Counted from the stretch's first letter, positions 377 to 62,705 are shown. The stretch: DNA of 64,000 bases from Callorhinchus milii (GCF_018977255.1 NW_024704742.1:39124001-39188000), one strand, 5' to 3'. Numbers and translations: made by a program. The notes: generated from the letters alone by a model not told the origin.

Positions 377-677
377 CTGCAGAGATGAGGAGGAATGAAG
401 AGCTGACTTACTTCACCATCTTCTCGTCTTCGTCTCAGTTTCACAATGTGATTTCTCCAAATGCCCAGACTTCATCTTTTATATTTCTTCAGCTGAATAT
501 CTCTTCATCCTTTTCAATTCATTTTGGATAGGGTGATGTTGTTGCCCTTGGTTGACTTCAATATAGTTGACCAGTTATAAGTTATGATGTCTTTTGTTTG
601 GGTGATAATGACTCCCTTTGTTACCTGGGGTTCAGGTGACCTTTCTAATATGTTCACTTTCGAGTAAGAACTAAATA
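377..677 (-). promoter_or_regulatory. Repeated putative Pol II promoter module, copy 1
   Basis: Minus strand: TATAAAAG 483-476, Inr-like TCACATT 451-445, donor GTAAGT 411-406, Sox-like AACAAAG 622-616, AGGTCA-cc-TGAACC 642-629. Function is inferred from motif order and orientation toward the hairpins. Confidence 0.7.
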
Positions 678-894
678 TGCCTTTGTGTCTCCAATCTACA
701 ACAGTTCCGTGGGCTCCTCCAACAAAGGATGACTTTGGGAAGGAAGGGTCAGGTAAATGTCGCCCAAACAAGGTAGCACTTATTAAAAAACACATAGAAA
801 ATGCTGCTATTCAGGTGACATTTGCCTTTAATCTACGGCAGATGGCCGGAACCAGACATGGCCATCTACAAGAAACTAAATGAAGATTCGATCG

Positions 895-970
895 GGTAGA
901 CGTTGCCCAAACAATTAGCACTTAGCAGAAACATGCACATGAAAATGCTACTGTTCGGGTGATATGTGCC
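895..970 (-). ncRNA. mir430: Representative hairpin; predicted 3p UAAGUGCUAAUUGUUUGGGCAA (903-924)
   Basis: Same fold; seed intact. Confidence 0.82.
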
Positions 971-1176
971 TTTAGTGTTCAAAACCTTGATGTCCTCCAT
1001 CAAATCATCAGAGACGGAATCCAGATTTGGTCAGGTAAATGTTGCCCAAACAAGGTAGCACTTACCAAAAACGACATAGAAAATGCTGCTGTTTAGGTGA
1101 CATGTCCCTTCAATCTACAGCAATTCCAAATCACCAGTCGTGGCCTCCTACAACAAACTGAACGGAGGTTCCTTCA

Positions 1177-1251
1177 GGTAAACATCGCCAAAACAAGTAG
1201 CACTTACCAGAAAATTACTCAGCAAAATGCTACTGTTTGGGTGATATGTCC
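1177..1251 (-). ncRNA. mir430: Representative hairpin; predicted 3p UAAGUGCUACUUGUUUUGGCGA (1185-1206)
   Basis: Same fold; seed intact. Confidence 0.85.
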
Positions 1252-1330
1252 ATTTACTGCACAATACCTTGATGGCATAAGTCGAGGTATTCTCCCCCAA
1301 TCTTTCACAGTAGGAAAGAAGTTTCGGTCA

Positions 1331-1408
1331 GGTAAATGTCGCCAAAACAAGGTAGCACTTACCAAAAAACACATAATAGAAAATGCTCCTGTTCAGGTGA
1401 CATTTGCC
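1331..1408 (-). ncRNA. mir430: Representative hairpin; predicted 3p UAAGUGCUACCUUGUUUUGGCG (1340-1361)
   Basis: Same fold; seed intact. Confidence 0.82.
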
Positions 1409-3896: not shown

Positions 3897-3969
3897 GGAA
3901 AACGTTGCCCAAACAGTTAGCACTTACCAGAAAACAAACAGAAAATGCTGCTGTTTAGGTGACATGTCC
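3897..3969 (-). ncRNA. mir430: Representative hairpin; predicted 3p UAAGUGCUAACUGUUUGGGCAA (3905-3926)
   Basis: Same fold; seed intact. Confidence 0.82.
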
Positions 3970-4376: not shown

Positions 4377-4677
4377 CTGCAGAGATGAGGAGGAATGAAG
4401 AGCTGACTTACTTCACCATCTTCTCGTCTTCGTCTCAGTTTCACAATGTGATTTCTCCAAATGCCCAGACTTCATCTTTTATATATCTTCAGCTGAATAT
4501 CTCTTCATCCTTTTCAATTCATTTTGGATAGGGTGATGTTGTTGCCCTTGGTTGACTTCAATATAGTTGACCAGTTATAAGTTATGATGTCTTTTGTTTG
4601 GGTGATAATGACTCCCTTTGTTACCTGGGGTTCAGGTGACCTTTCTAATATGTTCACTTTCGAGTAAGAACTAAATA
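4377..4677 (-). promoter_or_regulatory. Promoter module copy 3 (TATATAAAAG allele)
   Basis: TATA 4476-4483. Confidence 0.7.
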
Positions 4678-5474
4678 TGCCTTTGTGTCTCCAATCTACA
4701 ACAGTTCCGTGGGCTCCTCCAACAAAGGATGACTTTGGGAAGGAAGGGTCAGGTAAATGTCGCCCAAACAAGGTAGCACTTATTAAAAAACACATAGAAA
4801 ATGCTGTTATTCAGGTGACATTTGCCTTTAATCTATGGCAGATGGCCGGAACCAGACATGGCCATCTACAAGAAACTAAATGAAGATTCGATCGGGTAGA
4901 CGTTGCCCAAACAATTAGCACTTAGCAGAAACATGCACATGAAAATGCTACTGTTCGGGTGATATGTGCCTTTAGTGTTCAAAACCTTGATGTCCTCCAT
5001 CAAATCATCAGAGACGGAATCCAGATTTGGTCAGATAAATGTTGCCCAAACAAGGTAGTACTTACCAAAAACGACATAGAAAATGCTGCTGTTTAGGTGA
5101 CATGTCCCTTCAATCTACAGCAATTCCAAATCACCAGTCGTGGCCTCCTACAACAAACTGAACGGAGGTTCCTTCAGGTAAACATCGCCAAAACAAGTAG
5201 CACTTACCAGAAAATTACTCAGCAAAATGCTACTGTTTGGGTGATATGTCCATTTACTGCACAATACCTTGATGGCATAAGTCGAGGTATTCTCCCCCAA
5301 TCTTTCACAGTAGGAAAGAAGTTTCGGTCAGGTAAATGTCGCCAAAACAAGGTAGCACTTACCAAAAAAGACATAGAAAATGCTACTGTTGAGGTGACAT
5401 GTTCCTTTAATCTACGGCAGTTCCCCGGAACCTGACATGGCTTCCTACAATCACACTGAAGGAAGGTTCGGTCA

Positions 5475-6251: not shown

Positions 6252-6552
6252 CTGCAGAGATGAGGAGGAATGAAGAGCTGACTTACTTCACCATCTTCTC
6301 GTCTTCGTCTCAGTTTCACAATGTGATTTCTCCAAATGCCCAGACTTCATCTTTTATATATCTTCAGCTGAATATCTCTTCATCCTTTTCAATTCATTTT
6401 GGATAGGGTGATGTTGTTGCCCTTGGTTGACTTCAATATAGTTGACCAGTTATAAATTATGATGTCTTTTGTTTGGGTGATAATGACTCCCTTTGTTACC
6501 TGGGGTTCAGGTGACCTTTCTAATATGTTCACTTTCGAGTAAGAACTAAATA
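6252..6552 (-). promoter_or_regulatory. Promoter module copy 4 (TATATAAAAG allele)
   Basis: TATA 6351-6358. Confidence 0.7.
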
Positions 6553-9500
6553 TGCCTTTGTGTCTCCAATCTACAACAGTTCCGTGGGCTCCTCCAACAA
6601 AGGATGACTTTGGGAAGGAAGGGTCAGGTAAATGTCGCCCAAACAAGGTAGCACTTTTTAAAAAACACATAGAAAATGCTGTTATTCAGGTGACATTTGC
6701 CTTTAATCTATGGCAGATGGCCGGAACCAGACATGGCCATCTACAAGAAACTAAATGAAGATTCGATCGGGTAGACGTTGCCCAAACAATTAGCACTTAG
6801 CAGAAACATGCACATGAAAATGCTACTGTTCGGGTGATATGTGCCTTTAGTGTTCAAAGCCTTGATGTCCTCCATCAAATCATCAGAGACGGAATCCAGA
6901 TTTGGTCAGGTAAATGTTGCCCAAACAAGGTAGTACTTACCAAAAACGACATAGAAAATGCTGCTGTTTAGGTGACATATCCCTTCAATCTACAGCAATT
7001 CCAAATCACCAGTCGTGGCCTCCTACAACAAACTGAACGGAGGTTCCTTCAGGTAAACATCGCCAAAACAAGTAGCACTTACCAAAAAATTACTCAGCAA
7101 AAGGCTACTGTTTGGGTGATATGTCCATTTATTGCACAATACCTTGATGGCATAAGTCGAGGTATTCTCCCCCAATCTTTCACAGTAGGAAAGAAGTTTC
7201 GGTCAGGTAAATGTCGCCAAAACAAGGTAGCACTTACCAAAAAAGACATAGAAAATGCTACTGTTGAGGTGACATGTGCCTTTAATCTACGGCAGTTCCC
7301 CGGAACCTGACATGGCTTCCTACAACCACACTGAAGGAAGGTTCGGTCAGGAAAACGTTGCCCAAACAGGTAGCACTTATCTAAAAAATACACAGGAAAA
7401 TGCTACTGTTTGGGTTACATGTGCCTCTGCTGTCCTATACCCGGATGGAATCAAATGTGGTCTCCTTCACCTTACCGTCACAGTTGGAAAGAAGGTTTGG
7501 TCAGGTAAATGTCACCCAAACAAGGTAGCACTTACTAAAAAACACATAATAGAAAATGCTCCTGTTCAGGTAACATTTGCCTTTAATCTACAGCAGTTCG
7601 GCGGAAGCAGACATGGCATCCTACAAGAACACTGAATGCAGGTTCGGTCAGGAAAAGGTTGCCCAAACAGATAGCACTTACCAGAAAACAAACAGAAAAT
7701 GCTGCTGTTTAGGTGACATGTCCCTTCAATCTACAGCAATTCCAAATCACCAGTCGTGGCCTCCTACAACAACTTGAATGAAGGTTTGTTTAGGTAAACA
7801 TCGCCAAAACAAGTAGCACTTACCAGAAAATTACTCACCAAAATGCTACTGTTTGGGTGATATGTCCATTTACTGCACAATACCTTGATGGCATAAGTCG
7901 AGGTATTCTCCCCAATTTTTCACAGTAGGAAAGAAGTTTCGGTCAGGTAAATGTCGCCGAAACAAGGTAGCACTTACTAAAAAACACATAGAAAATGCTC
8001 CTGCTGAGGTGACATGTGCTTCAGTGTTCAAAACCTTGATGTCCTCCACCAAATCATCAGAGACGGAATCTAGATTTGTTCAGGTAAATGTCGTCCAAAC
8101 AAGGTAGCACTTACCAAAAAAGACATAGAAAATGCTACTGTTGAGGTGACATGTGCCTTTAATCTACGGCAGTTCCCCGGAACCTGACATGGCTTCCTAC
8201 AACCACACTGAAGGAAGGTTCGGTCAGGAAAACGTTGCCCAAACAGGTAGCACTTATCTGAAAAATACACAGGAAAATGCTACTGTTTGGTTACATGTGC
8301 CTCTGCTGGCCTATACCCGGATGGAATCAAATGTAGTGTCCTCCACCTTACCGTCACAGTTGGAAAGACGTTTCGGTCAGGTAAATGTCGCCCAAACAAG
8401 GTAGCACTTACCAAAATAGACATAGAAAATGCTACTGTTTCGGTCACATGTGCCAATAATCTACGGCAGTTCCCTGAAACCAGACATGGCCTCCTGCAAC
8501 AAACTGAATGAAGGTTCGGTCAGGTAAACATTGCCCAAACCAGTAGCACTTAGCAGAAAAATACACAGGAAAATGCTACTGTTCGGGTGATATGTGCCTT
8601 CAGTGTTCAAAACCTTGATGTCCTCCATCAAATCATCAGAGACGGAATCTAGATTTGTTCAGGTAAATGTCGCCCAAACAAGGTAGCACTTACCAAAAAA
8701 GACATAGAAAATGCTACTGTTGAGGTGACATGTGCCTTTAATTTACGGCCGTTCACCGGATCCTGACATGGCTTCCTACAACCACGCTGAAGGAAGGTTC
8801 GGTCAGGAGAACGTTGCCCAAACAGGTAGCACTTATCTGAAAAATACACAGGAAAAAGCTCCTGTTTGGGTTACATGTGCCTCTGCTGTCCTACACCCGG
8901 ATGGAATCAAATGTGGTCTCCTCCACCTTACCGTCACAGTTGGAAAGAAGGTTCGGTCAGGTAAATGTCGCCCAAATAGGGTAGCACTTACCAAAAAACA
9001 CATAGAAAATGCTCCTGTTCAGGTGACATTTGCCTTTAATCCACAGCAGTTCGCCGGAAGCAGACATGGCCTCCTGCAACAAATTAACTGAAGGTTTGGT
9101 CAGGAAAACGTTGCCCAAACAGTTAGCACTTACCAGAAAACAAACAGAAAATGCTGCTGTTTAGGTGACATGTCCCTTCAATCTACAGCAATTCCAAATC
9201 ACCAGTCGTGGCCTCCTACAACAAACTGAACGGAGGTTCCTTCAGGTAAACATCGCCAAAACAAGTAGCACTTACCAGAAAATTACTCAGCAAAATGCTA
9301 CTGTTTGGGTGATATGTCCATTTACTGCACAATACCTTGATGGCATAAGTCGAGGTATTCTCCCCCAATCTTTCACAGTAGGAAAGAAGTTTCGGTCAGG
9401 TAAATGTCGCCAAAACAAGGTAGCACTTACCAAAAAAGACATAGAAAATGCTACTGTTGAGGTGACATGTTCCTTTAATCTACGGCAGTTCCCCGGAACC

Positions 9501-10323: not shown

Positions 10324-10623
10324 CTGCAGAGATGAGGAGGAATGAAGAGCTGACTTACTTCACCATCTTCTCGTCTTCGTCTCAGTTTCACAATGTGATT
10401 TCTCCAAATGCCCAGACTTCATCTTTATATATCTTCAGCTGAATATCTCTTCATCCTTTTCAATTCATTTTGGATAGGGTGATGTTGTTGCCCTTGGTTG
10501 ACTTCAATATAGTTGACCAGTTATAAATTATGATGTCTTTTGTTTGGGTGATAATGACTCCCTTTGTTACCTGGGGTTCAGGTGACCTTTCTAATATGTT
10601 CACTTTCGAGTAAGAACTAAATA
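10324..10623 (-). promoter_or_regulatory. Promoter module copy 5 (TATATAAAG, 1-bp shorter)
   Basis: TATA ~10423-10429. Confidence 0.68.
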
Positions 10624-12200
10624 TGCCTTTGTGTCTCCAATCTACAACAGTTCCGTGGGCTCCTCCAACAAAGGATGACTTTGGGAAGGAAGGGTCAGGT
10701 AAATGTCGCCCAAACAAGGTAGCACTTTTTAAAAAACACATAGAAAATGCTGTTATTCAGGTGACATTTGCCTTTAATCTATGGCAGATGGCCGGAACCA
10801 GACATGGCCATCTACAAGAAACTAAATGAAGATTCGATCGGGTAGACGTTGCCCAAACAATTAGCACTTAGCAGAAACATGCACATGAAAATGCTACTGT
10901 TCGGGTGATATGTGCCTTTAGTGTTCAAAGCCTTGATGTCCTCCATCAAATCATCAGAGACGGAATCCAGATTTGGTCAGGTAAATGTTGCCCAAACAAG
11001 GTAGTACTTACCAAAAACGACATAGAAAATGCTGCTGTTTAGGTGACATGTCCCTTCAATCTACAGCAATTCCAAATCACCAGTCGTGGCCTCCTACAAC
11101 AAACTGAACGGAGGTTCCTTCAGGTAAACATCGCCAAAACAAGTAGCACTTACCAGAAAATTACTCAGCAAAATGCTACTGTTTGGGTGATATGTCCATT
11201 TACTGCACAATACCTTGATGGCATAAGTCGAGGTATTCTCCCCCAATCTTTCACAGTAGGAAAGAAGTTTCGGTCAGGTAAATGTCGCCAAAACAAGGTA
11301 GCACTTACCAAAAAAGACATAGAAAATGCTACTGTTGAGGTGACATGTTCCTTTAATCTACGGCAGTTCCCCGGAACCTGACATGGCTTCCTACAACCAC
11401 ACTGAAGGAAGGTTCGGTCAGGAAAACGTTGCCCAAACAGGTAGCACTTATCTGAAAAATACACAGGAAAATGCTACTGTTTGGGTTACATGTGCCTCTG
11501 CTGTCCTATACCCGGATGGAATCAAATGTGGTCTCCTTCACCTTACCGTCACAGTTGGAAAGAAGGTTCGGTCAGGTAAATGTCGCCCAAACAAGGTAGC
11601 ACTTACCAAAAAACACATAATAGAAAATGCTCCTGTTCAGGTGACATTTGCCTTTAATCTACAGCAGTTCGCCGGAAGCAGACATGGCCTCCTGCAACAA
11701 ATTAACTGAAGGTTTGGTCAGGAAAACGTTGCCCAAACAGTTAGCACTTACCAGAAAACAAACAGAAAATGCTGCTGTTTAGGTGACATGTCCCTTCAAT
11801 CTACAGCAATTCCAAATCACCAGTCGTGGCCTCCTACAACAAACTGAACGGAGGTTCCTTCAGGTAAACATCGCCAAAACAAGGAGCACTTACCAGAAAA
11901 TTACTCAGCAAAAGGCTACTGTTTGGGTGATATGTCCATTTACTGCACAATACCTTGATGGCATAAGTCGAGGTATTCTCCCCCAATCTTTCACAGTAGG
12001 AAAGAAGTTTCGGTCAGGTAAGCATCGCCAAAACAAGTAGCACTTACCAGAAAATTACTCAGCAAAATGCTACTGTTTGGGTGATATGTGCCTTTACTTT
12101 CCAACTCCTGGATGGAATCCAATGTGTTCCCCTTCAACAAACCAGCACAGGAGAAGAGGCGTTTCAGTCAGGCAAATGTCATCCAAACTAGATAGCAATC

Positions 12201-12501
12201 CTGCAGAGATGAGGAGGAATGAAGAGCTGACTTACTTCACCATCTTCTCGTCTTCGTCTCAGTTTCACAATGTGATTTCTCCAAATGCCCAGACTTCATC
12301 TTTTATATATCTTCAGCTGAATATCTCTTCATCCTTTTCAATTCATTTTGGATAGGGTGATGTTGTTGCCCTTGGTTGACTTCAATATAGTTGACCAGTT
12401 ATAAATTATGATGTCTTTTGTTTGGGTGATAATGACTCCCTTTGTTACCTGGGGTTCAGGTGACCTTTCTAATATGTTCACTTTCGAGTAAGAACTAAAT
12501 A
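12201..12501 (-). promoter_or_regulatory. Promoter module copy 6 (TATATAAAAG allele)
   Basis: TATA 12300-12307. Confidence 0.7.
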
Positions 12502-15811: not shown

Positions 15812-16112
15812 CTGCAGAGATGAGGAGGAATGAAGAGCTGACTTACTTCACCATCTTCTCGTCTTCGTCTCAGTTTCACAATGTGATTTCTCCAAATGCC
15901 CAGACTTCATCTTTTATATATCTTCAGCTGAATATCTCTTCATCCTTTTCAATTCATTTTGGATAGGGTGATGTTGTTGCCCTTGGTTGACTTCAATATA
16001 GTTGACCAGTTATAAATTATGATGTCTTTTGTTTGGGTGATAATGACTCCCTTTGTTACCTGGGGTTCAGGTGACCTTTCTAATATGTTCACTTTCGAGT
16101 AAGAACTAAATA
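15812..16112 (-). promoter_or_regulatory. Promoter module copy 7 (TATATAAAAG allele)
   Basis: TATA 15911-15918. Confidence 0.7.
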
Positions 16113-17689
16113 TGCCTTTGTGTCTCCAATCTACAACAGTTCCGTGGGCTCCTCCAACAAAGGATGACTTTGGGAAGGAAGGGTCAGGTAAATGTCGCCC
16201 AAACAAGGTAGCACTTATTTAAAAACACATAGAAAATGCTGTTATTCAGGTGACATTTGCCTTTAATCTATGGCAGATTGCCGGAACCAGACATGGCCAT
16301 CTACAAGAAACTAAATGAAGATTCGATCGGGTAGACGTTGCCCAAACAATTAGCACTTAGCAGAAACATGCACATGAAAATGCTACTGTTCGGGTGATAT
16401 GTGCCTTTAGTGTTCAAAACCTTGATGTCCTCCATCAAATCATCAGAGACGGAATCCAGATTTGGTCAGGTAAATGTTGCCCAAACAAGGTAGCACTTAC
16501 CAAAAACGACATAGAAAATGCTGCTGTTTAGGTGACATGTCCCTTCAATCTACAGCAATTCCAAATCACCAGTCGTGGCCTCCTACAACAAACTGAACGG
16601 AGGTTCCTTCAGGTAAACATCGCCAAAACAAGTAACACTTACCAGAAAATTACTCAGCAAAATGCTACTGTTTGGGTGATATGTCCATTTACTGCACAAT
16701 ACCTTGATGGCATAAGTCGAGGTATTCTCCCCCAATCTTTCACAGTAGGAAAGAAGTTTCGGTCAGGTAAGTGTCGCCAAAACAAGGTAGCACTTACCAA
16801 AAAAGACATAGAAAATGCTACTGTTGAGGTGACATGTTCCTTTAATCTACGGCAGTTCCCCGGAACCTGACATGGCTTCCTACAACCACACTGAAGGAAG
16901 GTTCGGTCAGGAAAACGTTGCCCAAACAGGTAGCACTTATCTGAAAAATACACAGGAAAATGCTACTGTTTGGGTTACATGTGCCTCTGCTGTCCTATAC
17001 CCGGATGGAATCAAATGTGGTCTCCTTCACCTTACCGTCACAGTTGGAAAGAAGGTTCGGTCAGGTAAATGTCGCCCAAACAAGGTAGCACTTACCAAAA
17101 AACACATAATAGAAAATGCTCCTGTTCAGGTGACATTTGCCTTTAATCTACAGCAGTTCGCCGGAAGCAGACATGGCCTCCTGCAACAAATTAACTGAAG
17201 GTTTGGTCAGGAAAACGTTGCCCAAACAGTTAGCACTTACCAGAAAACAAACAGAAAATGCTGCTGTTTAGGTGACATGTCCCTTCAATCTACAGCAATT
17301 CCAAATCACCAGTCGTGGCCTCCTACAACAAACTGAACGGAGGTTCCTTCAGGTAAACATCGCCAAAACAAGGAGCACTTACCAGAAAATTACTCAGCAA
17401 AAGGCTACTGTTTGGGTGATATGTCCATTTACTGCACAATACCTTGATGGCATAAGTCGAGGTATTCTCCCCCAATCTTTCACAGTAGGAAAGAAGTTTC
17501 GGTCAGGTAAGCATCGCCAAAACAAGTAGCACTTACCAGAAAATTACTCAGCAAAATGCTACTGTTTGGGTGATATGTGCCTTTACTTTCCAACTCCTGG
17601 ATGGAATCCAATGTGTTCCCCTTCAACAAACCAGCACAGGAGAAGAGGCGTTTCAGTCAGGCAAATGTCATCCAAACTAGATAGCAATC

Positions 17690-48510: not shown

Positions 48511-48811
48511 CTGCAGAGATGAGGAGGAATGAAGAGCTGACTTACTTTACCATCTTCTCGTCTTCGTCTCAGTTTCACAATGTGATTTCTCCAAATGCCC
48601 AGACTTCATCTTTTATATTTCTTCAGCTGAATATCTCTTCATCCTTTTCAATTCATTTTGGATAGGGTGATGTTGTTGCCCTTGGTTGACTTCAATATAG
48701 TTGACCAGTTATAAGTTATGATGTCTTTTGTTTGGGTGATAATGACTCCCTTTGTTACCTGGGGTTCAGGTGACCTTTCTAATATGTTCACTTTCGAGTA
48801 AGAACTAAATA
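48511..48811 (-). promoter_or_regulatory. Promoter module copy 20
   Basis: TATA 48610-48617. Confidence 0.7.
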
Positions 48812-50611
48812 TGCCTTTGTGTCTCCAATCTACAACAGTTCCGTGGGCTCCTCCAACAAAGGATGACTTTGGGAAGGAAGGGTCAGGTAAATGTCGCCCA
48901 AACAAGGTAGCACTTATTAAAAAACACATAGAAAATGCTGCTGTTTAGGTGACATGTCCCTTCAATCTACAGCAATTCCAAATCACCAGTCGTGGCCTCC
49001 TACAACAAACTGAACGGAGGTTCCTTCAGGTAAACATCGCCAAAACAAGTAGCACTTACCAGAAAATTACTCAGCAAAATGCTACTGTTTGGGTGATATG
49101 TCCATTTACTGCACAATACCTTGATGGCATAATTCGAGGTATTCTCCCCCAATCTTTCACAGTAGGAAAGAAGTTTCGGTCAGGTAAATGTCGCCAAAAC
49201 AAGGTAGCACTTATTAAAAAACACATAGAAAATGCTCCTGCTGAGGTGACATGTGCTTTAGTGTTCAAAACCTTGATGTCCTCCACCAAATCATCAGAGA
49301 CGGAATCTAGATTTGTTCAGGTAAATGTCGCCCAAACAAGGTAGCACTTACCAAAAAACACATAGAAAATGCTACTGTTGAGGTGACATGTGCCTTTAAT
49401 CTACGGCAGTTTCCCGGAACCTGACATGGCTTCCTACAACTACACTGAAGGAAGGTTCGGTCAGGAAAACGTTGCCCAAACAGGTAGCACTTATCTGAAA
49501 AATACACAGGAAAATGCTACTCTTTGGGTTACATGTGCCTCTGCTGTCCTATACCCGGATGGAATCAAATGTGGTCTCCTTCACCTTACCGTCACAGTTG
49601 GAAAGAAGGTTTGGTCAGGTAAATGTCGCCCAAACAAGGTAGCACTTACCAAAAAACACATAATAGAAAATGCTCCTGTTCAGTTGACATTTGCCTTTAA
49701 TCTACAGCAGTTCGCCGGAAGCAGACATGGCCTCCTGCAACAAATTAACTGAAGGTTTGGTCAGGAAAACGTTGCCCAAACAGTTAGCACTTACCAGAAA
49801 ACAAACAGAAAATGCTGCTGTTTAGGTGACATGTCCCTTCAATCTACAGCAATTCCAAATCACCAGTCGTGGCCTCCTACAACAAACTGAACGGAGGTTC
49901 CTTCAGGTAAACATCGCCAAAACAAGTAGCACTTACCAGAAAATTACTCAGCAAAATGCTACTGTTTGGGTGATATGTCCATTTACTGTACAATACCTTG
50001 ATGGCATAAGTCGAGGTATTCTCCTCCAATCTTTCACAGTAGGAAAGAAGTTTCGGTCTGGTAAATGTCGCCAAAACAGGGTAGCACTTACTAAAAAACA
50101 CATAGAAAATGCTCCTGCTGAGGTGACATGTGCTTTAGTGTTCAAAACCTTGATGTCCTCCACCAAATCATCAGAGACGGAATCTAGATTTGTTCAGGTA
50201 AATGTCGCCCAAACAAGGTAGCACTTACCTGAAAAACACACAGAAAATGCTACTGTTTGGGTTACATGTGCCTCTGCTGTCCTATACCCGGATGGAATCA
50301 AATGTGGTCTCCTCCACCTTACCGTCACAGTTGGAAAGAAGGTTTAGGTCACATGTGCCACTAATCTACGGCAGTTCCCTGAAACCAGACATGGCCTCCT
50401 GCAACAAGCTGAATGAAGGTTCGGTCAGGTAAACATTGCCCAAACCAGTAGCACTTAGCAGAAAAATACACAGGAAAATGCTACTGTTTGGGGGATATGT
50501 GCCTTTACTTTCCAACTCCTGGATGGAATCCAATGTGTTCCCCTTCAACAAACCAGCACAGGAGAAAAGGCGTTTCAGTCAGGCAAATGTCATCCAAACT
50601 AGATAGCAATC

Positions 50612-50912
50612 CTGCAGAGATGAAGAGGAATGAAGAGCTGACTTACTTCACCATCTTCTCGTCTTCGTCTCAGTTTCACAATGTGATTTCTCCAAATGCC
50701 CAGACTTCATCTTTTATATTTCTTCAGCTGAATATCTCTTCATCCTTTTCAATTCATTTTGGATAGGGTGATGTTGTTGCCCTTGGTTGACTTCAATATA
50801 GTTGACCAGTTATAAGTTATGATGTCTTTTGTTTGGGTGATAATGACTCCCTTTGTTACCTGGGGTTCAGGTGACCTTTCTAATATGTTCACTTTCGAGT
50901 AAGAACTAAATA
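50612..50912 (-). promoter_or_regulatory. Promoter module copy 21
   Basis: TATA 50711-50718. Confidence 0.7.
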
Positions 50913-53355
50913 TGCCTTTGTGTCTCCAATCTACAACAGTTCCGTGGGCTCCTCCAACAAAGGATGACTTTGGGAAGGAAGGGTCAGGTAAATGTCGCCC
51001 AAACAAGGTAGCACTTATTAAAAAACACATAGAAAATGCTGTTATTCAGGTGACATTTGCCTTTAATCTACGGCAGATGGCCGGAACCAGACATGGCCAT
51101 CTACAAGAAACTAAATGAAGATTCGATCGGGTAGACGTTGCCCAAACAATTAGCACTTAGCAGAAACATGCACATGAAAATGCTACTGTTCGGGTGATAT
51201 GTGCCTTTAGTGTTCAAAACCTTGATGTCCTCCATCAAATCATCAGAGACGGAATCCAGATTTGGTCAGGTAAATGTTGCCCAAACAAGGTAGCACTTAC
51301 CAAAAACGACATAGAAAATGCTGCTGTTTAGGTGACATGTCCCTTCAATCTACAGCAATTCCAAATCACCAGTCGTGGCCTCCTACAACAAACTGAACGG
51401 AGGTTCCTTCAGGTAAACATCGCCAAAACAAGTAGCACTTACCAGAAAATTACTCAGCAAAATGCTACTGTTTGGGTGATATGTCCATTTACTGCACAAT
51501 ACCTTGATGGCATAAGTCGAGGTATTCTCCCCCAATCTTTCACAGTAGGAAAGAAGTTTCGGTCAGGTAAATGTCGCCAAAACAAGGTAGCACTTATTAA
51601 AAAACACATAGAAAATGCTCCTGCTGAGGTGACATGTGCTTTAGTGTTCAAAACCTTGATGTCCTCCACCAAATCATCAGAGACGGAATCTAGATTTGTT
51701 CACGTAAATGTCGCCCAAACAAGGTAGCACTTACCAAAAAACACATAGAAAATGCTACTGTTTAGGTCACATGTGCCACTAATCTACGGCAGTTCCCCGG
51801 AACCTGACATGGCTTCCTACAACCACACTGAAGGAAGGTTCGGTCAGGAAAACGTTGCCCAAACAGGTAGCACTTATCTGAAAAATACACAGGAAAATGC
51901 TACTCTTTGGGTTACATGTGCCTCTGCTGTCCTATACCCGGATGGAATCAAATGTGGTCTCCTTCACCTTACCGTCACAGTTGGAAAGAAGGTTTGGTCA
52001 GGTAAATGTCGCCCAAACAAGGTAGCACTTACCAAAAAACACATAGAAAATGCTACTGTTGAGGTGACATGTGCCTTTAATCTACGGCAGTTTCCCGGAA
52101 CCTGACATGGCTTCCTACAACCACACTGAAGGAAGGTTCGGTCAGGAAAACGTTGCCCAAACAGGTAGCACTTATCTGAAAAATACACAGGAAAATGCTA
52201 CTGTTTGGGTTACATGTGCCTCTGCTGTCCTATACCCGGATGGAATCAAATGTGGTCTCCTTCACCTTACCGTCACAGTTGGAAAGAAGGTTTGTTCAGG
52301 TAAATGTCGCCCAAACAAGGTAGCACTTACCAAAAAACACATAGAAAATGCTACTGTTTAGGTCACATGTGCCACTAATCTACGGCAGTTCCCCGGAACC
52401 TGACATGGCTTCCTACAACCACACTGAAGGAAGGTTCGGTCAGGAAAACGTTGCCCAAACAGTTAGCACTTACCGGAAAACAAACAGAAAATGCTGCTGT
52501 TTAGGTGACATGTCCCTTCAATCTACAGCAATTCCAAATCACCAGTCGTGGCCTCCTACAACAAACTGAATGGAGGTTCCTTCAGGTAAACATCGCCAAA
52601 ACAAGTAGCACTTACCAGAAAATTACTCAGCAAAATGCTATTGTTTGGGTGATATGTCCATTTACTGCACAATACCTTGATGGCATAAGTCGAGGTATTC
52701 TCCCCCAATCTTTCACAGTAGGAAAGAAGTTTCGGTCAGGTAAGCATCGCCAAAACAAGTTGCACTTACCAGAAAATTACTCAGCAAAATGCCACTGTTT
52801 GGGTGATATGTCCATTTACTGCACAATACCTTGATGGCATAAGTCAAGGTATTCTCCCCCAATCTTTCACAGTAGGAAAGAAGTTTCGGTCAGGTAAATG
52901 TCGCCAAAACAAGGTAGCACTTATTAAAAACACATAGAAAATGCTCCTGCTGAGGTGACATGTGCTTCAGTGTTCAAAACCTTGATGTCCTCCACCAAAT
53001 CATCAGAGACGGAATCCAGATTTGTTCAGGTAAATGTCGCCCAAACAAAGTAGCACTTGCCAAAAAACACATAGAAAATGCTACTGTTTAGGTCACATGT
53101 GCCACTAATCTACGGCAGTTCCCTGAAACCAGACATGGCCTCCTGCAACAAGCTGAATGAAGGTTCGGTCAGGTAAACATTGCCCAAACCAGTAGCACTT
53201 AGCAGAAAAATACACAAGAAAATGCTACTGTTTGGGTGATATGTGCCTTTACTTTCCAACTCCTGGATGGAATCCAATGTGTTCCCCTTCAACAAACCAG
53301 CACAGGAGAAAAGGTGTTTCAGTCAGGCAAATGTCATCCAAACTAGATAGCAATC

Positions 53356-53656
53356 CTGCAGAGATGAGGAGGAATGAAGAGCTGACTTACTTTACCATCT
53401 TCTCGTCTTCGTCTCAGTTTCACAATGTGATTTCTCCAAATGCCCAGACTTCATCTTTTATATTTCTTCAGCTGAATATCTCTTCATCCTTTTCAATTCA
53501 TTTTGGATAGGGTGATGTTGTTGCCCTTGGTTGACTTCAATATAGTTGACCAGTTATAAGTTATGATGTCTTTTGTTTGGGTGATAATGACTCCCTTTGT
53601 TACCTGGGGTTCAGGTGACCTTTCTAATATGTTCACTTTCGAGTAAGAACTAAATA
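53356..53656 (-). promoter_or_regulatory. Promoter module copy 22
   Basis: TATA 53455-53462. Confidence 0.7.
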
Positions 53657-55650
53657 TGCCTTTGTGTCTCCAATCTACAACAGTTCCGTGGGCTCCTCCA
53701 ACAAAGGATGACTTTGGGAAGGAAGGGTCAGGTAAATGTCGCCCAAACAAGGTAGCACTTATTAAAAAACACATAGAAAATGCTGCTATTCAGGAGACAT
53801 TTGCCTTTAATCTACGGCAGATGGCCGGAACCAGACATGGCCATCTACAAGAAACTAAATGAAGATTCGATCGGGTAGACGTTACCCAAACAATTAGCAC
53901 TGAGCAGAAACATGCACATGAAAATGCTACTGTTCGGGTGATATGTGCCTTTAGTGTTCAAAACCTTGATATCCTCCATCAAATCATCAGAGACGGAATC
54001 CAGATTTGGTCAGGTAAATGTTGCCCAAACAAGGTAGCACTTACCAAAAACGACACAGAAAATGCTGCTGTTTAGGTGACATGTCCCTTCAATCTACAGC
54101 AATTCCAAATCACCAGTCGTGGCCTCCTACAACAAACTGAACGGAGGTTCCTTCAGGTAAACATCGCCAAAACAAGTAGCACTTACCAGAAAATTACTCA
54201 GCAAAATGCTACTGTTTGGGTGATATGTCCATTTACTGCACAATACCTTGATGGCATAAGTCGAGGTATTCTCCCCCAATCTTTCACAGTAGGAAAGAAG
54301 TTTCGGTCAGGTAAATGTCGCCAAAACAAGGTAGCACTTATTAAAAAACACATAGAAAATGCTCCTGCTGAGGTGACATGTGCTTTAGTGTTCAAAACCT
54401 TGATGTCCTCCACCAAATCATCAGAGACGGAATCTAGATTTGTTCAGGTAAATGTCGCCCAAACAAGGTAGCACTTACCAAAAAACACATAGAAAATGCT
54501 ACTGTTGAGGTGACATGTGCCTTTAATCTACGGCAGTTTCCCGGAACCTGACATGGCTTCCTACAACCACACTGAAGGAAGGTTCGGTCAGGAAAACGTT
54601 GCCCAAACAGGTAGCACTTATCTGAAAAATACACAGGAAAATGCTACTGTTTGGGTTACATGTGCCTCTGCTGTCCTATACCCGGATGGAATCAAATGTG
54701 GTCTCCTTCACCTTACCGTCACAGTTGGAAAGAAGGTTTGGTCAGGTAAATGTCGCCCAAACAAGGTAGCACTTACCAAAAAACACATAATAGAAAATGC
54801 TCCTGTTCAGTTGACATTTGCCTTTAATCTACAGCAGTTCGCCGGAAGCAGACATGGCCTCCTGCAACAAATTAACTGAAGGTTTGGTCAGGAAAACGTT
54901 GCCCAAACAGTTAGCACTTACCAGAAAACAAACAGAAAATGCTGCTGTTTAGGTGACATGTCCCTTCAATCTACAGCAATTCCAAATCACCAGTCGTGGC
55001 CTCCTACAACAAACTGAACGGAGGTTCCTTCAGGTAAACATCGCCAAAACAAGTAGCACTTACCAGAAAATTACTCAGCAAAATGCTACTGTTTGGGTGA
55101 TATGTCCATTTACTGTACAATACCTTGATGGCATAAGTCGAGGTATTCTCCTCCAATCTTTCACAGTAGGAAAGAAGTTTCGGTCTGGTAAATGTCGCCA
55201 AAACAGGGTAGCACTTACTAAAAAACACATAGAAAATGCTCCTGCTGAGGTGACATGTGCTTTAGTGTTCAAAACCTTGATGTCCTCCACCAAATCATCA
55301 GAGACGGAATCTAGATTTGTTCAGGTAAATGTCGCCCAAACAAGGTAGCACTTACCAAAAAACACATAGAAAATGCTACTGTTTATGTCACATGTGCCAC
55401 TAATCTACGGCAGTTCCCTGAAACCAGACATGGCCTCCTGCAACAAGCTGAATGAAGGTTCGGTCAGGTAAACATTGCCCAAACCAGTAGCACTTAGCAG
55501 AAAAATACACAGGAAAATGCTACTGTTTGGGGGATATGTGCCTTTACTTTCCAACTCCTGGATGGAATCCAATGTGTTCCCCTTCAACAAACCAGCACAG
55601 GAGAAAAGGCGTTTCAGTCAGGCAAATGTCATCCAAACTAGATAGCAATC

Positions 55651-55951
55651 CTGCAGAGATGAAGAGGAATGAAGAGCTGACTTACTTCACCATCTTCTCG
55701 TCTTCGTCTCAGTTTCACAATGTGATTTCTCCAAATGCCCAGACTTCATCTTTTATATTTCTTCAGCTGAATATCTCTTCATCCTTTTCAATTCATTTTG
55801 GATAGGGTGATGTTGTTGCCCTTGGTTGACTTCAATATAGTTGACCAGTTATAAGTTATGATGTCTTTTGTTTGGGTGATAATGACTCCCTTTGTTACCT
55901 GGGGTTCAGGTGACCTTTCTAATATGTTCACTTTCGAGTAAGAACTAAATA
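55651..55951 (-). promoter_or_regulatory. Promoter module copy 23
   Basis: TATA 55750-55757. Confidence 0.7.
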
Positions 55952-58394
55952 TGCCTTTGTGTCTCCAATCTACAACAGTTCCGTGGGCTCCTCCAACAAA
56001 GGATGACTTTGGGAAGGAAGGGTCAGGTAAATGTCGCCCAAACAAGGTAGCACTTATTAAAAAACACATAGAAAATGCTGTTATTCAGGTGACATTTGCC
56101 TTTAATCTACGGCAGATGGCCGGAACCAGACATGGCCATCTACAAGAAACTAAATGAAGATTCGATCGGGTAGACGTTGCCCAAACAATTAGCACTTAGC
56201 AGAAACATGCACATGAAAATGCTACTGTTCGGGTGATATGTGCCTTTAGTGTTCAAAACCTTGATGTCCTCCATCAAATCATCAGAGACGGAATCCAGAT
56301 TTGGTCAGGTAAATGTTGCCCAAACAAGGTAGCACTTACCAAAAACGACACAGAAAATGCTGCTGTTTAGGTGACATGTCCCTTCAATCTACAGCAATTC
56401 CAAATCACCAGTCGTGGCCTCCTACAACAAACTGAACGGAGGTTCCTTCAGGTAAACATCGCCAAAACAAGTAGCACTTACCAGAAAATTACTCAGCAAA
56501 ATGCTACTGTTTGGGTGATATGTCCATTTACTGCACAATACCTTGATGGCATAAGTCGAGGTATTCTCCCCCAATCTTTCACAGTAGGAAAGAAGTTTCG
56601 GTCAGGTAAATGTCGCCAAAACAAGGTAGCACTTATTAAAAAACACATAGAAAATGCTCCTGCTGAGGTGACATGTGCTTTAGTGTTCAAAACCTTGATG
56701 TCCTCCACCAAATCATCAGAGACGGAATCTAGATTTGTTCAGGTAAATGTCGCCCAAACAAGGTAGCACTTACCAAAAAACACATAGAAAATGCTACTGT
56801 TGAGGTGACATGTGCCTTTAATCTACGGCAGTTTCCCGGAACCTGACATGGCTTCCTACAACCACACTGAAGGAAGGTTCGGTCAGGAAAACGTTGCCCA
56901 AACAGGTAGCACTTATCTGAAAAATACACAGGAAAATGCTACTGTTTGGGTTACATGTGCCTCTGCTGTCCTATACCCGGATGGAATCAAATGTGGTCTC
57001 CTTCACCTTACCGTCACAGTTGGAAAGAAGGTTTGGTCAGGTAAATGTCGCCCAAACAAGGTAGCACTTACCAAAAAACACATAGAAAATGCTACTGTTG
57101 AGGTGACATGTGCCTTTAATCTACGGCAGTTTCCCGGAACCTGACATGGCTTCCTACAACCACACTGAAGGAAGGTTCGGTCAGGAAAACGTTGCCCAAA
57201 CAGGTAGCACTTATCTGAAAAATACACAGGAAAATGCTACTGTTTGGGTTACATGTGCCTCTGCTGTCCTATACCCGGATGGAATCAAATGTGGTCTCCT
57301 TCACCTTACCGTCACAGTTGGAAAGAAGGTTTGTTCAGGTAAATGTCGCCCAAACAAGGTAGCACTTACCAAAAAACACATAGAAAATGCTACTGTTTAG
57401 GTCACATGTGCCACTAATCTACGGCAGTTCCCCGGAACCTGACATGGCTTCCTACAACCACACTGAAGGAAGGTTCGGTCAGGAAAACGTTGCCCAAACA
57501 GTTAGCACTTACCGGAAAACAAACAGAAAATGCTGCTGTTTAGGTGACATGTCCCTTCAATCTACAGCAATTCCAAATCACCAGTCGTGGCCTCCTACAA
57601 CAAACTGAATGGAGGTTCCTTCAGGTAAACATCGCCAAAACAAGTAGCACTTACCAGAAAATTACTCAGCAAAATGCTATTGTTTGGGTGATATGTCCAT
57701 TTACTGCACAATACCTTGATGGCATAAGTCGAGGTATTCTCCCCCAATCTTTCACAGTAGGAAAGAAGTTTCGGTCAGGTAAGCATCGCCAAAACAAGTT
57801 GCACTTACCAGAAAATTACTCAGCAAAATGCCACTGTTTGGGTGATATGTCCATTTACTGCACAATACCTTGATGGCATAAGTCAAGGTATTCTCCCCCA
57901 ATCTTTCACAGTAGGAAAGAAGTTTCGGTCAGGTAAATGTCGCCAAAACAAGGTAGCACTTATTAAAAAACACATAGAAAATGCTCCTGCTGAGGTGACA
58001 TGTGCTTCAGTGTTCAAAACCTTGATGTCCTCCACCAAATCATCAGAGACGGAATCCAGATTTGTTCAGGTAAATGTCGCCCAAACAAAGTAGCACTTGC
58101 CAAAAAACACATAGAAAATGCTACTGTTTAGGTCACATGTGCCACTAATCTACGGCAGTTCCCTGAAACCAGACATGGCCTCCTGCAACAAGCTGAATGA
58201 AGGTTCGGTCAGGTAAACATTGCCCAAACCAGTAGCACTTAGCAGAAAAATACACAGAAAATGCTACTGTTTGGGTGATATGTGCCTTTACTTTCCAACT
58301 CCTGGATGGAATCCAATGTGTTCCCCTTCAACAAACCAGCACAGGAGAAAAGGTGTTTCAGTCAGGCAAATGTCATCCAAACTAGATAGCAATC

Positions 58395-58695
58395 CTGCAG
58401 AGATGAGGAGGAATGAAGAGCTGACTTACTTTACCATCTTCTCGTCTTCGTCTCAGTTTCACAATGTGATTTCTCCAAATGCCCAGACTTCATCTTTTAT
58501 ATTTCTTCAGCTGAATATCTCTTCATCCTTTTCAATTCATTTTGGATAGGGTGATGTTGTTGCCCTTGGTTGACTTCAATATAGTTGACCAGTTATAAGT
58601 TATGATGTCTTTTGTTTGGGTGATAATGACTCCCTTTGTTACCTGGGGTTCAGGTGACCTTTCTAATATGTTCACTTTCGAGTAAGAACTAAATA
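58395..58695 (-). promoter_or_regulatory. Promoter module copy 24
   Basis: TATA 58494-58501. Confidence 0.7.
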
Positions 58696-60687
58696 TGCCT
58701 TTGTGTCTCCAATCTACAACAGTTCCGTGGGCTCCTCCAACAAAGGATGACTTTGGGAAGGAAGGGTCAGGTAAATGTCGCCCAAACAAGGTAGCACTTA
58801 TTAAAAAACACATAGAAAATGCTGCTATTCAGGAGACATTTGCCTTTAATCTACGGCAGATGGCCGGAACCAGACATGGCCATCTACAAGAAACTAAATG
58901 AAGATTCGATCGGGTAGACGTTACCCAAACAATTAGCACTGAGCAGAAACATGCACATGAAAATGCTACTGTTCGGGTGATATGTGCCTTTAGTGTTCAA
59001 AACCTTGATATCCTCCATCAAATCATCAGACGGAATCCAGATTTGGTCAGGTAAATGTTGCCCAAACAAGGTAGCACTTACCAAAAACGACACAGAAAAT
59101 GCTGCTGTTTAGGTGACATGTCCCTTCAATCTACAGCAATTCCAAATCACCAGTCGTGGCCTCCTACAACAAACTGAACGGAGGTTCCTTCAGGTAAACA
59201 TCGCCAAAACAAGTAGCACTTACCAGAAAATTACTCAGCAAAATGCTACTGTTTGGGTGATATGTCCATTTACTGCACAATACCTTGATGGCATAAGTCG
59301 AGGTATTCTCCCCCAATCTTTCACAGTAGGAAAGAAGTTTCGGTCAGGTAAATGTCGCCAAAACAAGGTAGCACTTATTAAAAAACACATAGAAAATGCT
59401 CCTGCTGAGGTGACATGTGCTTTAGTGTTCAAAACCTTGATGTCCTCCACCAAATCATCAGAGACGGAATCTAGATTTGTTCAGGTAAATGTCGCCCAAA
59501 CAAGGTAGCACTTACCAAAAAACACATAGAAAATGCTACTGTTGAGGTGACATGTGCCTTTAATCTACGGCAGTTTCCCGGAACCTGACATGGCTTCCTA
59601 CAACCACACTGAAGGAAGGTTCGGTCAGGAAAACGTTGCCCAAACAGGTAGCACTTATCTGAAAAATACACAGGAAAATGCTACTGTTTGGGTTACATGT
59701 GCCTCTGCTGTCCTATACCCGGATGGAATCAAATGTGGTCTCCTTCACCTTACCGTCACAGTTGGAAAGAAGGTTTGGTCAGGTAAATGTCGCCCAAACA
59801 AGGTAGCACTTACCAAAAAATACATAATAGAAAATGCTCCTGTTCAGTTGACATTTGCCTTTAATCTACAGCAGTTCGCCGGAAGCAGACATGGCCTCCT
59901 GCAACAAATTAACTGAAGGTTTGGTCAGGAAAACGTTGCCCAAACAGTTAGCACTTACCAGAAAACAAACAGAAAATGCTGCTGTTTAGGTGACATGTCC
60001 CTTCAATCTACAGCAATTCCAAATCACCAGTCGTGGCCTCCTACAACAAACTGAACGGAGGTTCCTTCAGGTAAACATCGCCAAAACAAGTAGCACTTAC
60101 CAGAAAATTACTCAGCAAAATGCTACTGTTTGGGTGATATGTCCATTTACTGTACAATACCTTGATGGCATAAGTCGAGGTATTCTCCTCCAATCTTTCA
60201 CAGTAGGAAAGAAGTTTCGGTCTGGTAAATGTCGCCAAAACAGGGTAGCACTTACTAAAAAACACATAGAAAATGCTCCTGCTGAGGTGACATGTGCTTT
60301 AGTGTTCAAAACCTTGATGTCCTCCACCAAATCATCAGAGACGGAATCTAGATTTGTTCAGGTAAATGTCGCCCAAACAAGGTAGCACTTACCAAAAAAC
60401 ACATAGAAAATGCTACTGTTTATGTCACATGTGCCACTAATCTACGGCAGTTCCCTGAAACCAGACATGGCCTCCTGCAACAAGCTGAATGAAGGTTCGG
60501 TCAGGTAAACATTGCCCAAACCAGTAGCACTTAGCAGAAAAATACACAGGAAAATGCTACTGTTTGGGGGATATGTGCCTTTACTTTCCAACTCCTGGAT
60601 GGAATCCAATGTGTTCCCCTTCAACAAACCAGCACAGGAGAAAAGGCGTTTCAGTCAGGCAAATGTCATCCAAACTAGATAGCAATC

Positions 60688-60988
60688 CTGCAGAGATGAA
60701 GAGGAATGAAGAGCTGACTTACTTCACCATCTTCTCGTCTTCGTCTCAGTTTCACAATGTGATTTCTCCAAATGCCCAGACTTCATCTTTTATATTTCTT
60801 CAGCTGAATATCTCTTCATCCTTTTCAATTCATTTTGGATAGGGTGATGTTGTTGCCCTTGGTTGACTTCAATATAGTTGACCAGTTATAAGTTATGATG
60901 TCTTTTGTTTGGGTGATAATGACTCCCTTTGTTACCTGGGGTTCAGGTGACCTTTCTAATATGTTCACTTTCGAGTAAGAACTAAATA
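60688..60988 (-). promoter_or_regulatory. Promoter module copy 25
   Basis: TATA 60787-60794. Confidence 0.7.
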
Positions 60989-62220
60989 TGCCTTTGTGTC
61001 TCCAATCTACAACAGTTCCGTGGGCTCCTCCAACAAAGGATGACTTTGGGAAGGAAGGGTCAGGTAAATGTCGCCCAAACAAGGTAGCACTTATTAAAAA
61101 ACACATAGAAAATGCTGTTATTCAGGTGACATTTGCCTTTAATCTACGGCAGATGGCCGGAACCAGACATGGCCATCTACAAGAAACTAAATGAAGATTC
61201 GATCGGGTAGACGTTGCCCAAACAATTAGCACTTAGCAGAAACATGCACATGAAAATGCTACTGTTCGGGTGATATGTGCCTTTAGTGTTCAAAACCTTG
61301 ATGTCCTCCACCAAATCATCAGAGACGGAATCTAGATTTGTTCAGGTAAATGTCGCCCAAACAGGTAGCACTTATCTGAAAAATACACAGGAAAATGCTT
61401 CTGTTTGGGTCACATGTGCCTCTGCTGTCCTATACCCGGATGGAATCAAATGTGGTCTCCTTCACCTTACCGTCACAGTTGGAAAGAAGGTTTGGTCAGG
61501 TAAATGTCGCCCAAACAAGGTAGCACTTACCAAAAAACACATAATAGAAAATGCTCCTGTTCAGTTGACATTTGCCTTTAATCTACAGCTGTTCGCCGGA
61601 AGCAGACATGGCCTCCTGCAACAAATTAACTGAAGGTTTGGTCAGGAAAACGTTGCCCAAACAGTTAGCACTTACCAGAAAACAAACAGAAAATGCTGCT
61701 GTTTAGGTGACATGTCCCTTCAATCTACAGCAATTCCAAATCACCAGTCGTGGCCTCCTACAACAAACTGAACGGAGGTTCCTTCAGGTAAACATCGCCA
61801 AAACAAGTAGCACTTACCAGAAAATTACTCAGCAAAATGCTACTGTTTGGGTGATATGTCCATTTACTGTACAATACCTTGATGGCATAAGTCGAGGTAT
61901 TCTCCTCCAATCTTTCACAGTAGGAAAGAAGTTTCGGTCTGGTAAATGTCGCCAAAACAGGGTAGCACTTACTAAAAAACACATAGAAAATGCTCCTGCT
62001 GAGGTGACATGTGCTTTAGTGTTCAAAACCTTGATGTCCTCCACCAAATCATCAGAGACGGAATCTAGATTTGTTCAGGTAAATGTCGCCCAAACAAGGT
62101 AGCACTTGCCAAAAAACACATAGAAAATGCTACTGTTTAGGTCACATGTGCCACTAATCTACGGCAGTTCCCTGAAACCAGACATGGCCTCCTGCAACAA
62201 GCTGAATGAAGGTTCGGTCA

Positions 62221-62296
62221 GGTAAACATTGCCCAAACCAGTAGCACTTAGCAGAAAAATACACAGGAAAATACTACTGTTTGGGTGATATTTGCC
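62221..62296 (-). ncRNA. mir430: Rightmost (5'-most) hairpin of the cluster; predicted 3p UAAGUGCUACUGGUUUGGGCAA (62229-62250)
   Basis: Last monomer before the terminal promoter module; it has a few private substitutions in the 5' arm. Confidence 0.82.
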
Positions 62297-62404
62297 TTTG
62301 CTTTCCAACTCCTGGATGGAATCCAATGTGTTCCCCTTCAACAAACCAACACAGAAGAAAAGGCGTTTCAGTCAGGCAAATGTCATCCAAACTAGATAGC
62401 AATC

Positions 62405-62705
62405 CTGCAGAGATGAGGAGGAATGAAGAGCTGACTTACTTCACCATCTTCTCGTCTTCGTCTCAGTTTCACAATGTGATTTCTCCAAATGCCCAGACTT
62501 CATCTTTTATATTTCTTCAGCTGAATATCTCTTCATCCTTTTCAATTCATTTTGGATAGGGTGATGTTTTTGTTCTTGGTTGACTTGAATATAGTTAACC
62601 AGTTATAAGTGATGGTGTCTTTTGTTTGAGTGATAATCACTCCCTTTGTTACTTGGGGTTCAGGTGACCTTTCTAATATGTTCACTTTGAATTAAGAACT
62701 AAATA
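62405..62705 (-). promoter_or_regulatory. Terminal (5'-most, probable founder) promoter module, copy 26
   Basis: TATAAAAG 62511-62504 and donor GTAAGT 62439-62434. It is contiguous with single-copy upstream DNA, and its upstream half is diverged from the internal copies. Confidence 0.75.

Follow-up and report, generated by a model that had tools for sequence, protein, structure and literature searches.

A repeated TATA-box module as a candidate promoter within a miR-430-type hairpin array of Callorhinchus milii

The DNA surveyed here is a stretch of 64,000 nucleotides from the cartilaginous fish Callorhinchus milii (GCF_018977255.1, NW_024704742.1:39124001-39188000), referred to below at its full length as the window, which holds part of a large tandem array of miR-430-type microRNA hairpins. 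Along this array, blocks of hairpins alternate with copies of a short non-hairpin module, which carries a TATA box and lies in the same orientation as the hairpins. A first-pass annotation of the window had described the module as a complete promoter cassette that was co-amplified with the hairpins. The one-orientation alternation of TATA module and hairpin blocks is real, whereas the activity of the modules, especially of the internal copies, is a matter of prediction. The modules, internal ones included, are considered here to be probably working promoters of the microRNA primary transcripts (pri-miR-430), a reading which is preferred with some reserve and which draws on sequence comparison throughout.

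The hairpin array and its repeated module

A search of the 991.5-Mb genome places the whole array at C1:39103466-39186883, a span of about 83 kb, with genome-wide totals of 33 modules, 451 exact seeds and about 480 matches to the hairpin unit. The part that falls within the window occupies positions 1-62373 on the minus strand, and was delimited by the Rfam family RF01413, by the seeds, by a hidden Markov model (HMM) of the hairpin unit and by folding. All 342 AAGUGCU seeds of the window lie on the minus strand, in tandem and on the 3' arm of the hairpins. The unit HMM, a profile built from 101 distinct units, matches 357 units of 137-155 bp each, and the units recur in the window with a period of 137-155 nt. 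Seven hairpins, all on the minus strand, pass the RF01413 gathering score of 47.3, at 48-56 bits, and most of the 357 units score below that threshold. Two sampled hairpins fold at -26.5 and -29.5 kcal/mol, with z-scores of -3.3 and -3.4 relative to shuffled sequences. Forty of the 142 candidates in the genome were scored, and the scored hairpin matches all fall in this one locus.

The module is the sole non-hairpin component of the array within the window. Its reference copy is taken as window positions 377-700 on the minus strand (324 bp), from which the module positions given below are counted. A BLASTN comparison of this copy with the window returned 27 matches, all on the minus strand. 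Twenty-five copies are of full length, with identities of 99.07-100%, and the terminal, 5'-most copy, which lies at the edge of the array (copy 26; 62405-62705), is 95.7% identical across module positions 24-324. Following the reference (copy 1, 100%), the internal copies lie at 2238-2561 (100%), 4377-4700 (99.7%), 6252-6575 (99.4%), 10324-10646 (copy 5, with a 1-nt deletion), 12201-12524, 15812-16135, 17690-18013, 21331-21654, 24643-24966 (copy 10), 26938-27261, 29233-29556, 31528-31850 (copy 13, with a 1-nt deletion at module position 311), 33540-33863, 35835-36158, 38282-38605, 40295-40618, 42308-42631, 45053-45376, 48511-48834 (copy 20), 50612-50935, 53356-53679, 55651-55974, 58395-58718 and 60688-61011 (copy 25, the last internal one), all on the minus strand. 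The distance from module to module varies from 1694 to 4071 bp, with a mean of about 2480 bp. The 26 minus-strand copies thus bear out the earlier claim of a module recurring 26 times in the orientation of the hairpins, and the unit HMM likewise confirms the 9-25 hairpins described for each inter-module block (9-24 when counted by exact seed).

Five of the 25 blocks contain 20-25 hairpin units, namely those at window positions 16135, 21654, 24966, 48834 and 10646. The 3312-bp unit at 24966 looks, by alignment, like two blocks fused without an intervening module, an arrangement consistent with unequal crossing-over between hairpin paralogues.

The motifs listed in the first-pass annotation were all found in the module at the places described. 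In the reference copy, and reading along the minus strand, a motif scan finds the AGGTCA-cc-TGAACC element (629-642; AGGTCACCTGAACC at module position 59), the heptamer AACAAAG, whose complement is the Sox-type CTTTGTT (616-622; module position 79), and the weaker Sox-like AACAAAA (592-598; module position 103). These are followed by the TATA box TATAAAAG (476-483; module positions 218-225) and by the initiator-like TCACATT (445-451; module position 250), the A of which is the predicted +1 (module position 252, window position 449), and stands 34 nt beyond the T that opens the TATA box. The hexamer GTAAGT, which fits the 5' splice-site consensus, starts 38 nt beyond this A (406-411; module position 290).

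A TATA box is present in all 26 copies of the module, in 25 of them as the exact TATAAAAG and in one as TATATAAAG. The latter belongs to the copy at 10324-10646, whose 1-nt deletion falls in the box (around module position 221); a TATA box is retained there because the deletion lies on an A216T background. The A216T variant itself occurs in 7 of the 26 copies, where it lengthens the box to TATATAAAAG. Two further variants, 287A (6 of the window's 26 copies) and 312T (9 of them), are confined to internal modules and are both absent from the terminal one; such diagnostic variants would allow capped reads to be assigned to internal copies. The internal modules fall altogether into seven distinct haplotypes, with blocks of varied length. 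In three DNA runs, the contigs that carry the module reach depths of 159-423 against 5.3-9.1 for the unique upstream flank, a ratio of about 30-60 which agrees roughly with tens of copies, although the runs may include the assembled individual and the depth is not a copy number.

Origin and homogenization of the module

The borders of the module lie inside a hairpin unit. On the left, an inter-hairpin spacer and the start of a 5' arm run into the module insert (684-747, minus strand), and this edge matches positions 8-74 of the unit HMM (E 8e-6). On the right, a truncated miR-430 3' arm without a 5' arm partner follows directly after the module (347-373, minus strand) and matches (E 0.004) HMM positions 117-143, where the mature microRNA has its 3' half. 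Since the unit profile aligns at both edges, the module is an insert of about 310 bp in one hairpin unit, and by this alignment it replaces the 5' arm, the loop and the seed of that unit.

The terminal copy matches the internal copies only from module position 24, and the sequence further upstream is not part of the array. The first element met there is an older, degenerate duplicate of the copy's own upstream half (62703-62883, minus strand; module positions 26-220, 72% identity by BLASTN), in which CCCCAGGTAACAAAG is kept and the TATA box is lost. Neither a hairpin seed nor a match to the unit HMM was found upstream of the terminal module, and the array therefore begins with a module. The hairpin-unit borders of the internal copies, together with the non-array sequence upstream of the terminal one, indicate that the module is a copy of the array's own 5' flank. 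The simplest history suggested by this arrangement is that the module was once only the 5' flank, that it was duplicated together with a hairpin block into a hairpin unit, and that the resulting repeat was then amplified and homogenized. In the whole-genome search the only copy of the module outside the array, which bears on a possible transposon origin, is a 68-bp fragment on C11. That fragment (C11:3239661-3239728, minus strand) is 99% identical to module positions 186-253, from the TATA box to the C of the initiator, and directly abuts the head of a short interspersed element (SINE) derived from tRNA-Ala. It has no obvious target-site duplication, and may have arisen as a retrocopy, chimeric or extended at its 5' end, of RNA that read through the array.

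Homogenization has been extensive, and whole 2.3-kb repeat units are 99.4-99.9% identical. The terminal copy differs from the internal ones at 13 sites, all within module positions 24-160, whereas its core (positions 161-311) is identical to theirs, and this identity extends into the downstream hairpin block. The identical core was considered as a footprint of selection and rejected, an identical hairpin block adjoining it. The terminal differences spare the three upstream motifs, which would happen by chance in about 5% of cases and is weakly suggestive. Another candidate signal of constraint, namely that units vary little between module positions -100 and +450, was set aside as confounded by the paralogy of the flanking hairpins.

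The module as a candidate promoter

The distribution of TATA strings within the window is exclusive. On the transcribed strand TATAAA occurs 26 times, TATAAAAG 25 times and TATAWAWR 32 times, all inside modules; neither the hairpins, which make up roughly 54 kb, nor the 1.1 kb between the upstream edge of the array and the end of the window at 64000 contain a sense TATA string. The frequency expected by chance was estimated from 100,000 mononucleotide shuffles of one insert of about 307 nt, using motif definitions chosen post hoc. A TATAWAWR string with a YYANWYY initiator 28-34 nt downstream arose in 0.8% of the shuffles, the exact TATAAAAG in 2.6%, and TATAWAWR on its own in 16.6%. The position of the module at the 5' edge of the array is plausibly that of a promoter, being where one would have to lie, and its derivation from the array's own flank and the likeness to the zebrafish layout count in favor of the same reading. 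From these features we infer promoter activity and a start site at the A of the initiator-like motif.

A mechanism can be proposed on this basis. The module would be an RNA polymerase II promoter with a TATA box, an initiator that follows it at about 34 nt, and upstream sequence of about 230 bp, and would at first have been confined to the array's 5' edge. Through duplication this 5' flank, together with a hairpin block, would have entered a hairpin unit inside the array, and higher-order repeat amplification would then have produced the 33 copies of the assembly (about 30-60 by the rough depth ratio). At genome activation each copy of the module would load polymerase and transcribe the 9-25 hairpins downstream of it, so that no hairpin would be farther than about 4 kb from a start site, and loading could proceed in parallel along the 83-kb locus.

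How the transcripts end is a separate matter. Only 6 poly(A) signals (AATAAA) occur in the 83 kb of transcribed strand, one of them within a SINE; the unit ends are therefore not set by poly(A) signals, and the design of many short transcription units, which the first-pass annotation had proposed for the locus, is not established. In view of this near absence, the transcripts are proposed to end by Microprocessor cleavage or by run-on. A TATA-dependent RNA polymerase III promoter of type 3 was also considered for the module and excluded. Runs of at least 4 T begin 116 nt past the putative start (TTTT), runs of T5-T6 lie in the hairpin loops, and runs of at least 5 T number 241, so that terminators for that polymerase would stand within the transcribed unit itself.

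Several considerations weigh against the modules being promoters, or against the force of the argument for it. The usual distance from TATA box to start is 28-33 nt, and the 34 nt of the module lie at its long edge. Transcription that reads through from upstream units could occlude the promoters of the internal copies. As products of duplication, the copies count as one observation and not as 26, and the identity of the terminal core continues into the hairpins and so reflects homogenization rather than selection. Within four repeat families the modules show 3 segregating sites in 1240 nt and the remainder of the units 43 in 7691 nt, an excess of constraint on the modules that is not significant (Fisher p=0.20). 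The upstream motifs are sparse as well. Of the two Sox-like sites claimed earlier, AACAAAG is the complement of the canonical CTTTGTT and can be retained, whereas AACAAAA is weaker, and a scan of the module for the octamer ATGCAAAT found none on either strand; a single canonical Sox heptamer and no octamer would at most speak weakly against the promoter.

The splice donor, too, is difficult to maintain as a part of the cassette. The transcribed strand holds 243 copies of GTAAGT, one in each of the 26 modules and 217 in hairpins, and the hexamer is thus not specific to the module. It is frequent in the hairpins because the mature microRNA begins (G)UAAGUGCU, and 197 of the 217 hairpin occurrences read GGTAAGT. 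In the module, 32 nt separate the hexamer from the truncated 3' arm downstream of it, whose first letters are TGCTATC; were these 32 nt removed, GTAAGT and the truncated arm would together read as a miR-430-like mature sequence. GTAAGT falls at that position in 1.2% of shuffles. Followed as it is by a truncated microRNA arm, the hexamer is probably a remnant of the miR-430 seed; it may still bind U1, and would not be the mark of a purpose-built cassette. The next pyrimidine-rich CAG follows GTAAGT after 35 nt, an interval that could not accommodate a vertebrate intron. The idea of a concealed hairpin or mini-intron was considered and dropped, as the putative first exon and the pyrimidine stretch that follows it fold no better than shuffled sequences (z -0.12 and +1.39).

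Considered on the minus strand of the whole array, the seed itself, in the 197 GGTAAGT hairpins, makes a near-perfect consensus for a 5' splice site or for U1 binding, and the spacers between hairpins carry an acceptor-like TTGTTGCAG/G. Binding of U1 along the pri-miRNA may matter, for example in suppressing premature cleavage.

Alternative explanations

The alternative that survives best holds that only the terminal module at 62405-62705 works and that the 32 internal copies are passengers, either silent or occluded within one long pri-miRNA. Such passengers would have been carried along in the amplified higher-order repeat; whole units are homogenized, and the modules show no excess constraint of their own. 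The scarcity of AATAAA also means that upstream transcripts could run through the internal modules. In addition, a fifth of the blocks are as long as 20-25 units, and in the 3312-bp unit at 24966 a hairpin block is joined on without a module, so that loss of a module seems to be tolerated. Against this, the cores of the internal copies (module positions 161-311) are identical to that of the terminal one, and the TATA box is kept in 26 of 26 copies, the deletion copy included. A single start would, moreover, imply transcription over about 83 kb, an unusually long primary transcript for a microRNA. In zebrafish an isolated miR-430 promoter copy is autonomously active, according to 10.1101/2021.08.09.455629. 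On balance, activity restricted to the terminal copy appears unlikely, though it is the most serious competitor of the preferred reading, in which the internal modules would also initiate transcription.

Less probable still is the proposal that the module is no promoter at all, but an old insertion, or a hairpin unit that has decayed or been interrupted, with fortuitous TATA and initiator strings, the array being transcribed from elsewhere, such as a TATA-less start further upstream or read-through from WDR1. The module does lie inside a hairpin unit and its GTAAGT resembles a seed remnant; shuffles yield the exact TATAAAAG and TATAWAWR on their own at the rates given above (2.6% and 16.6%), the evidence from transcription-factor motifs is weak, and WDR1 is located upstream on the same strand. 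What argues against a fortuitous origin is that a TATA box and an initiator in the right geometry are rare by chance, and that both the module and its older partial duplicate stand exactly at the 5' edge of the array. There is also no further sense TATAAA between the first hairpin and the end of the window at 64000, and the coding sequence of WDR1 stops 8.4 kb upstream. That the modules are a mis-assembled or inflated tandem repeat is highly improbable: a 25-N gap beside a 98.8% duplicate of the array tail (C1:39094254-39095282) does indicate a region that is hard to assemble, but in all three DNA runs the contigs with the module exceed the unique flank 30-60-fold in depth, a contig bridges that flank into the terminal module, and the internal copies differ in haplotype and in block length.

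Genomic neighborhood

Upstream of the array, the nearest gene on the minus strand is a complete WDR1 (C1:39195297-39211334), in which residues 8-609 are matched in 14 exons. Its last coding exon ends at C1:39195297, which is 8.4 kb before the first module, and the array is therefore intergenic and not intronic, a point in favor of the promoter reading. A flanking exon is 100% identical, across the aligned part, to the C. milii WDR1 entry in UniRef, and a Pfam scan of 65 flanking open reading frames found WD40 exons only. WDR1 could serve as an anchor of synteny in the search for orthologous arrays in other species.

Just upstream of the array, window positions 63618-64000 belong to a very high-copy interspersed repeat that resembles, in reverse, the body and tail of the tRNA-derived SINE abutted by the C11 fragment; the corresponding contigs reach depths of about 1,000-49,000 in four runs, where joints and loose ends are numerous. 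Close to the array's 3' end, this tRNA-derived SINE is inserted in a hairpin (C1:39104087-39104416) and has an (ATT)n tail. About 28 nt of inverted hairpin sequence precede this SINE and hold the only plus-strand AAGTGCT of that stretch. Some 8 kb downstream of the array, beside the 25-N gap, C1:39094254-39095306 duplicates the 3' end of the array at 98.8% identity and contains five hairpin units. A haplotype left uncollapsed, or a mis-join, may account for it; it does not have to be a second locus.

Implications and comparison with known arrays

Multiplied promoters are already known in miR-430 arrays, having been shown in zebrafish and predicted in other fishes. The new elements appear to be a specific TATA module found in a cartilaginous fish and its apparent derivation from the 5' flank of the array. 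Taken together, the findings amount to a well-anchored prediction from the DNA. For the formation of the first zygotic transcription bodies, the zebrafish miR-430 locus serves as the model, and its extreme promoter density is thought to be causal. If the same layout is built in C. milii from an unrelated module, the design would be either ancient in jawed vertebrates or repeatedly evolved, and each of these outcomes would point to a selected design rather than to an oddity of zebrafish. More broadly, promoter multiplication in miR-430 arrays may be no peculiarity of teleosts: this array would have captured and amplified the promoter of its own 5' flank, and the full set of 33-50 copies, firing when the genome is activated, would seed a focus like a transcription body. 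This wider proposal is put forward tentatively, as one that we lean slightly against rather than towards. Should it hold, a genome of the holocephalan type, whose lineage split from that of the bony fishes at the root of the jawed-vertebrate tree, would share promoter multiplication.

The locus would also illustrate a simple route to such a design, whereby the 5' flank is duplicated into a hairpin unit and the higher-order repeat is then amplified. It keeps the scar of this birth, in the flank joined to a hairpin 5' arm and in the truncated 3' arm downstream. The first-pass annotation had explained the multiplied promoters by the need for fast microRNA output in short cleavage cell cycles. Chimaeras develop slowly, and if the wider proposal holds, this would suggest that the design serves dosage or the formation of transcription bodies, and not only short cell cycles; the rationale given earlier is doubtful for this animal.

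Tandem arrays of ribosomal DNA (rDNA), 5S, histone and small nuclear RNA (snRNA) genes offer a general parallel. They carry one promoter per unit and multiply their output by co-amplification of the promoter, and their units are complete genes with defined terminators. The units of the C. milii array have, in contrast, variable numbers of hairpins and no recognizable terminator.

The miR-427 locus of Xenopus is closer in kind. As described in the available text of PMC10569791, it is likewise a large tandem array of AAGUGCU hairpins with strong activation in the first wave, which depends on Pou5f3 and Sox3. It differs from the present array in its dimensions, with 171 precursors in X. tropicalis and 33 in X. 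laevis, the latter in both orientations over 55 kb, and a repeated promoter module is not described in that portion of the source.

Among the fishes, a survey of miR-430 arrays from lamprey to teleosts included a C. milii assembly (PMC10417697). Within the accessible part of this source, a promoter inside the repeat is considered possible for the tandem miR-430 clusters of fishes, cartilaginous through bony, as it is predicted here: promoters were predicted by a neural network in the consensus subunits of all species but three, the subunits measured 251-1481 bp, and that of C. milii was obtained with Tandem Repeats Finder. The same part of the source has no C. milii row in its Table 1 and describes neither a 324-bp module recurring every 2.5 kb or so nor an origin from the 5' flank. 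In the literature searched on miR-430 and miR-427 arrays, as far as its accessible text extends, no prior description of the C. milii module was met, and PMC10417697 alone touches on the subject. It also states, in that part, that the promoter of the Danio miR-430 locus was not found outside Danio.

The zebrafish locus itself provides the fullest comparison. Its promoter, of 650 bp and with a TATA box, lies between hairpin triplets, on average every 1.8 kb; its start sites have been mapped by cap analysis of gene expression (CAGE), and a single copy of it drove a reporter, as given in 10.1101/2021.08.09.455629. The non-hairpin insert of C. milii is shorter, at about 310 bp, and precedes 9-25 hairpins, compared with the 2-3 triplets (6-9 hairpins) per promoter in zebrafish; its hairpins are not arranged in the a-c-b triplets of that species. 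In number, the more than 300 zebrafish copies in 0.6 Mb stand against 33 in about 83 kb (roughly 30-60 by depth). The zebrafish promoter has been characterized by CAGE, by chromatin immunoprecipitation of Nanog, Pou5f3 and Sox and by reporter lines, whereas its C. milii counterpart is a predicted promoter. Of the likeness drawn by the first-pass annotation, it is accordingly the layout that stands, with the activity of the repeat unit a prediction. Both species have a single large tandem locus in which one-orientation blocks of miR-430 hairpins alternate with a non-hairpin, TATA-bearing segment, at a spacing of about 2 kb (1.8 kb on average in zebrafish, about 2.5 kb in C. milii).

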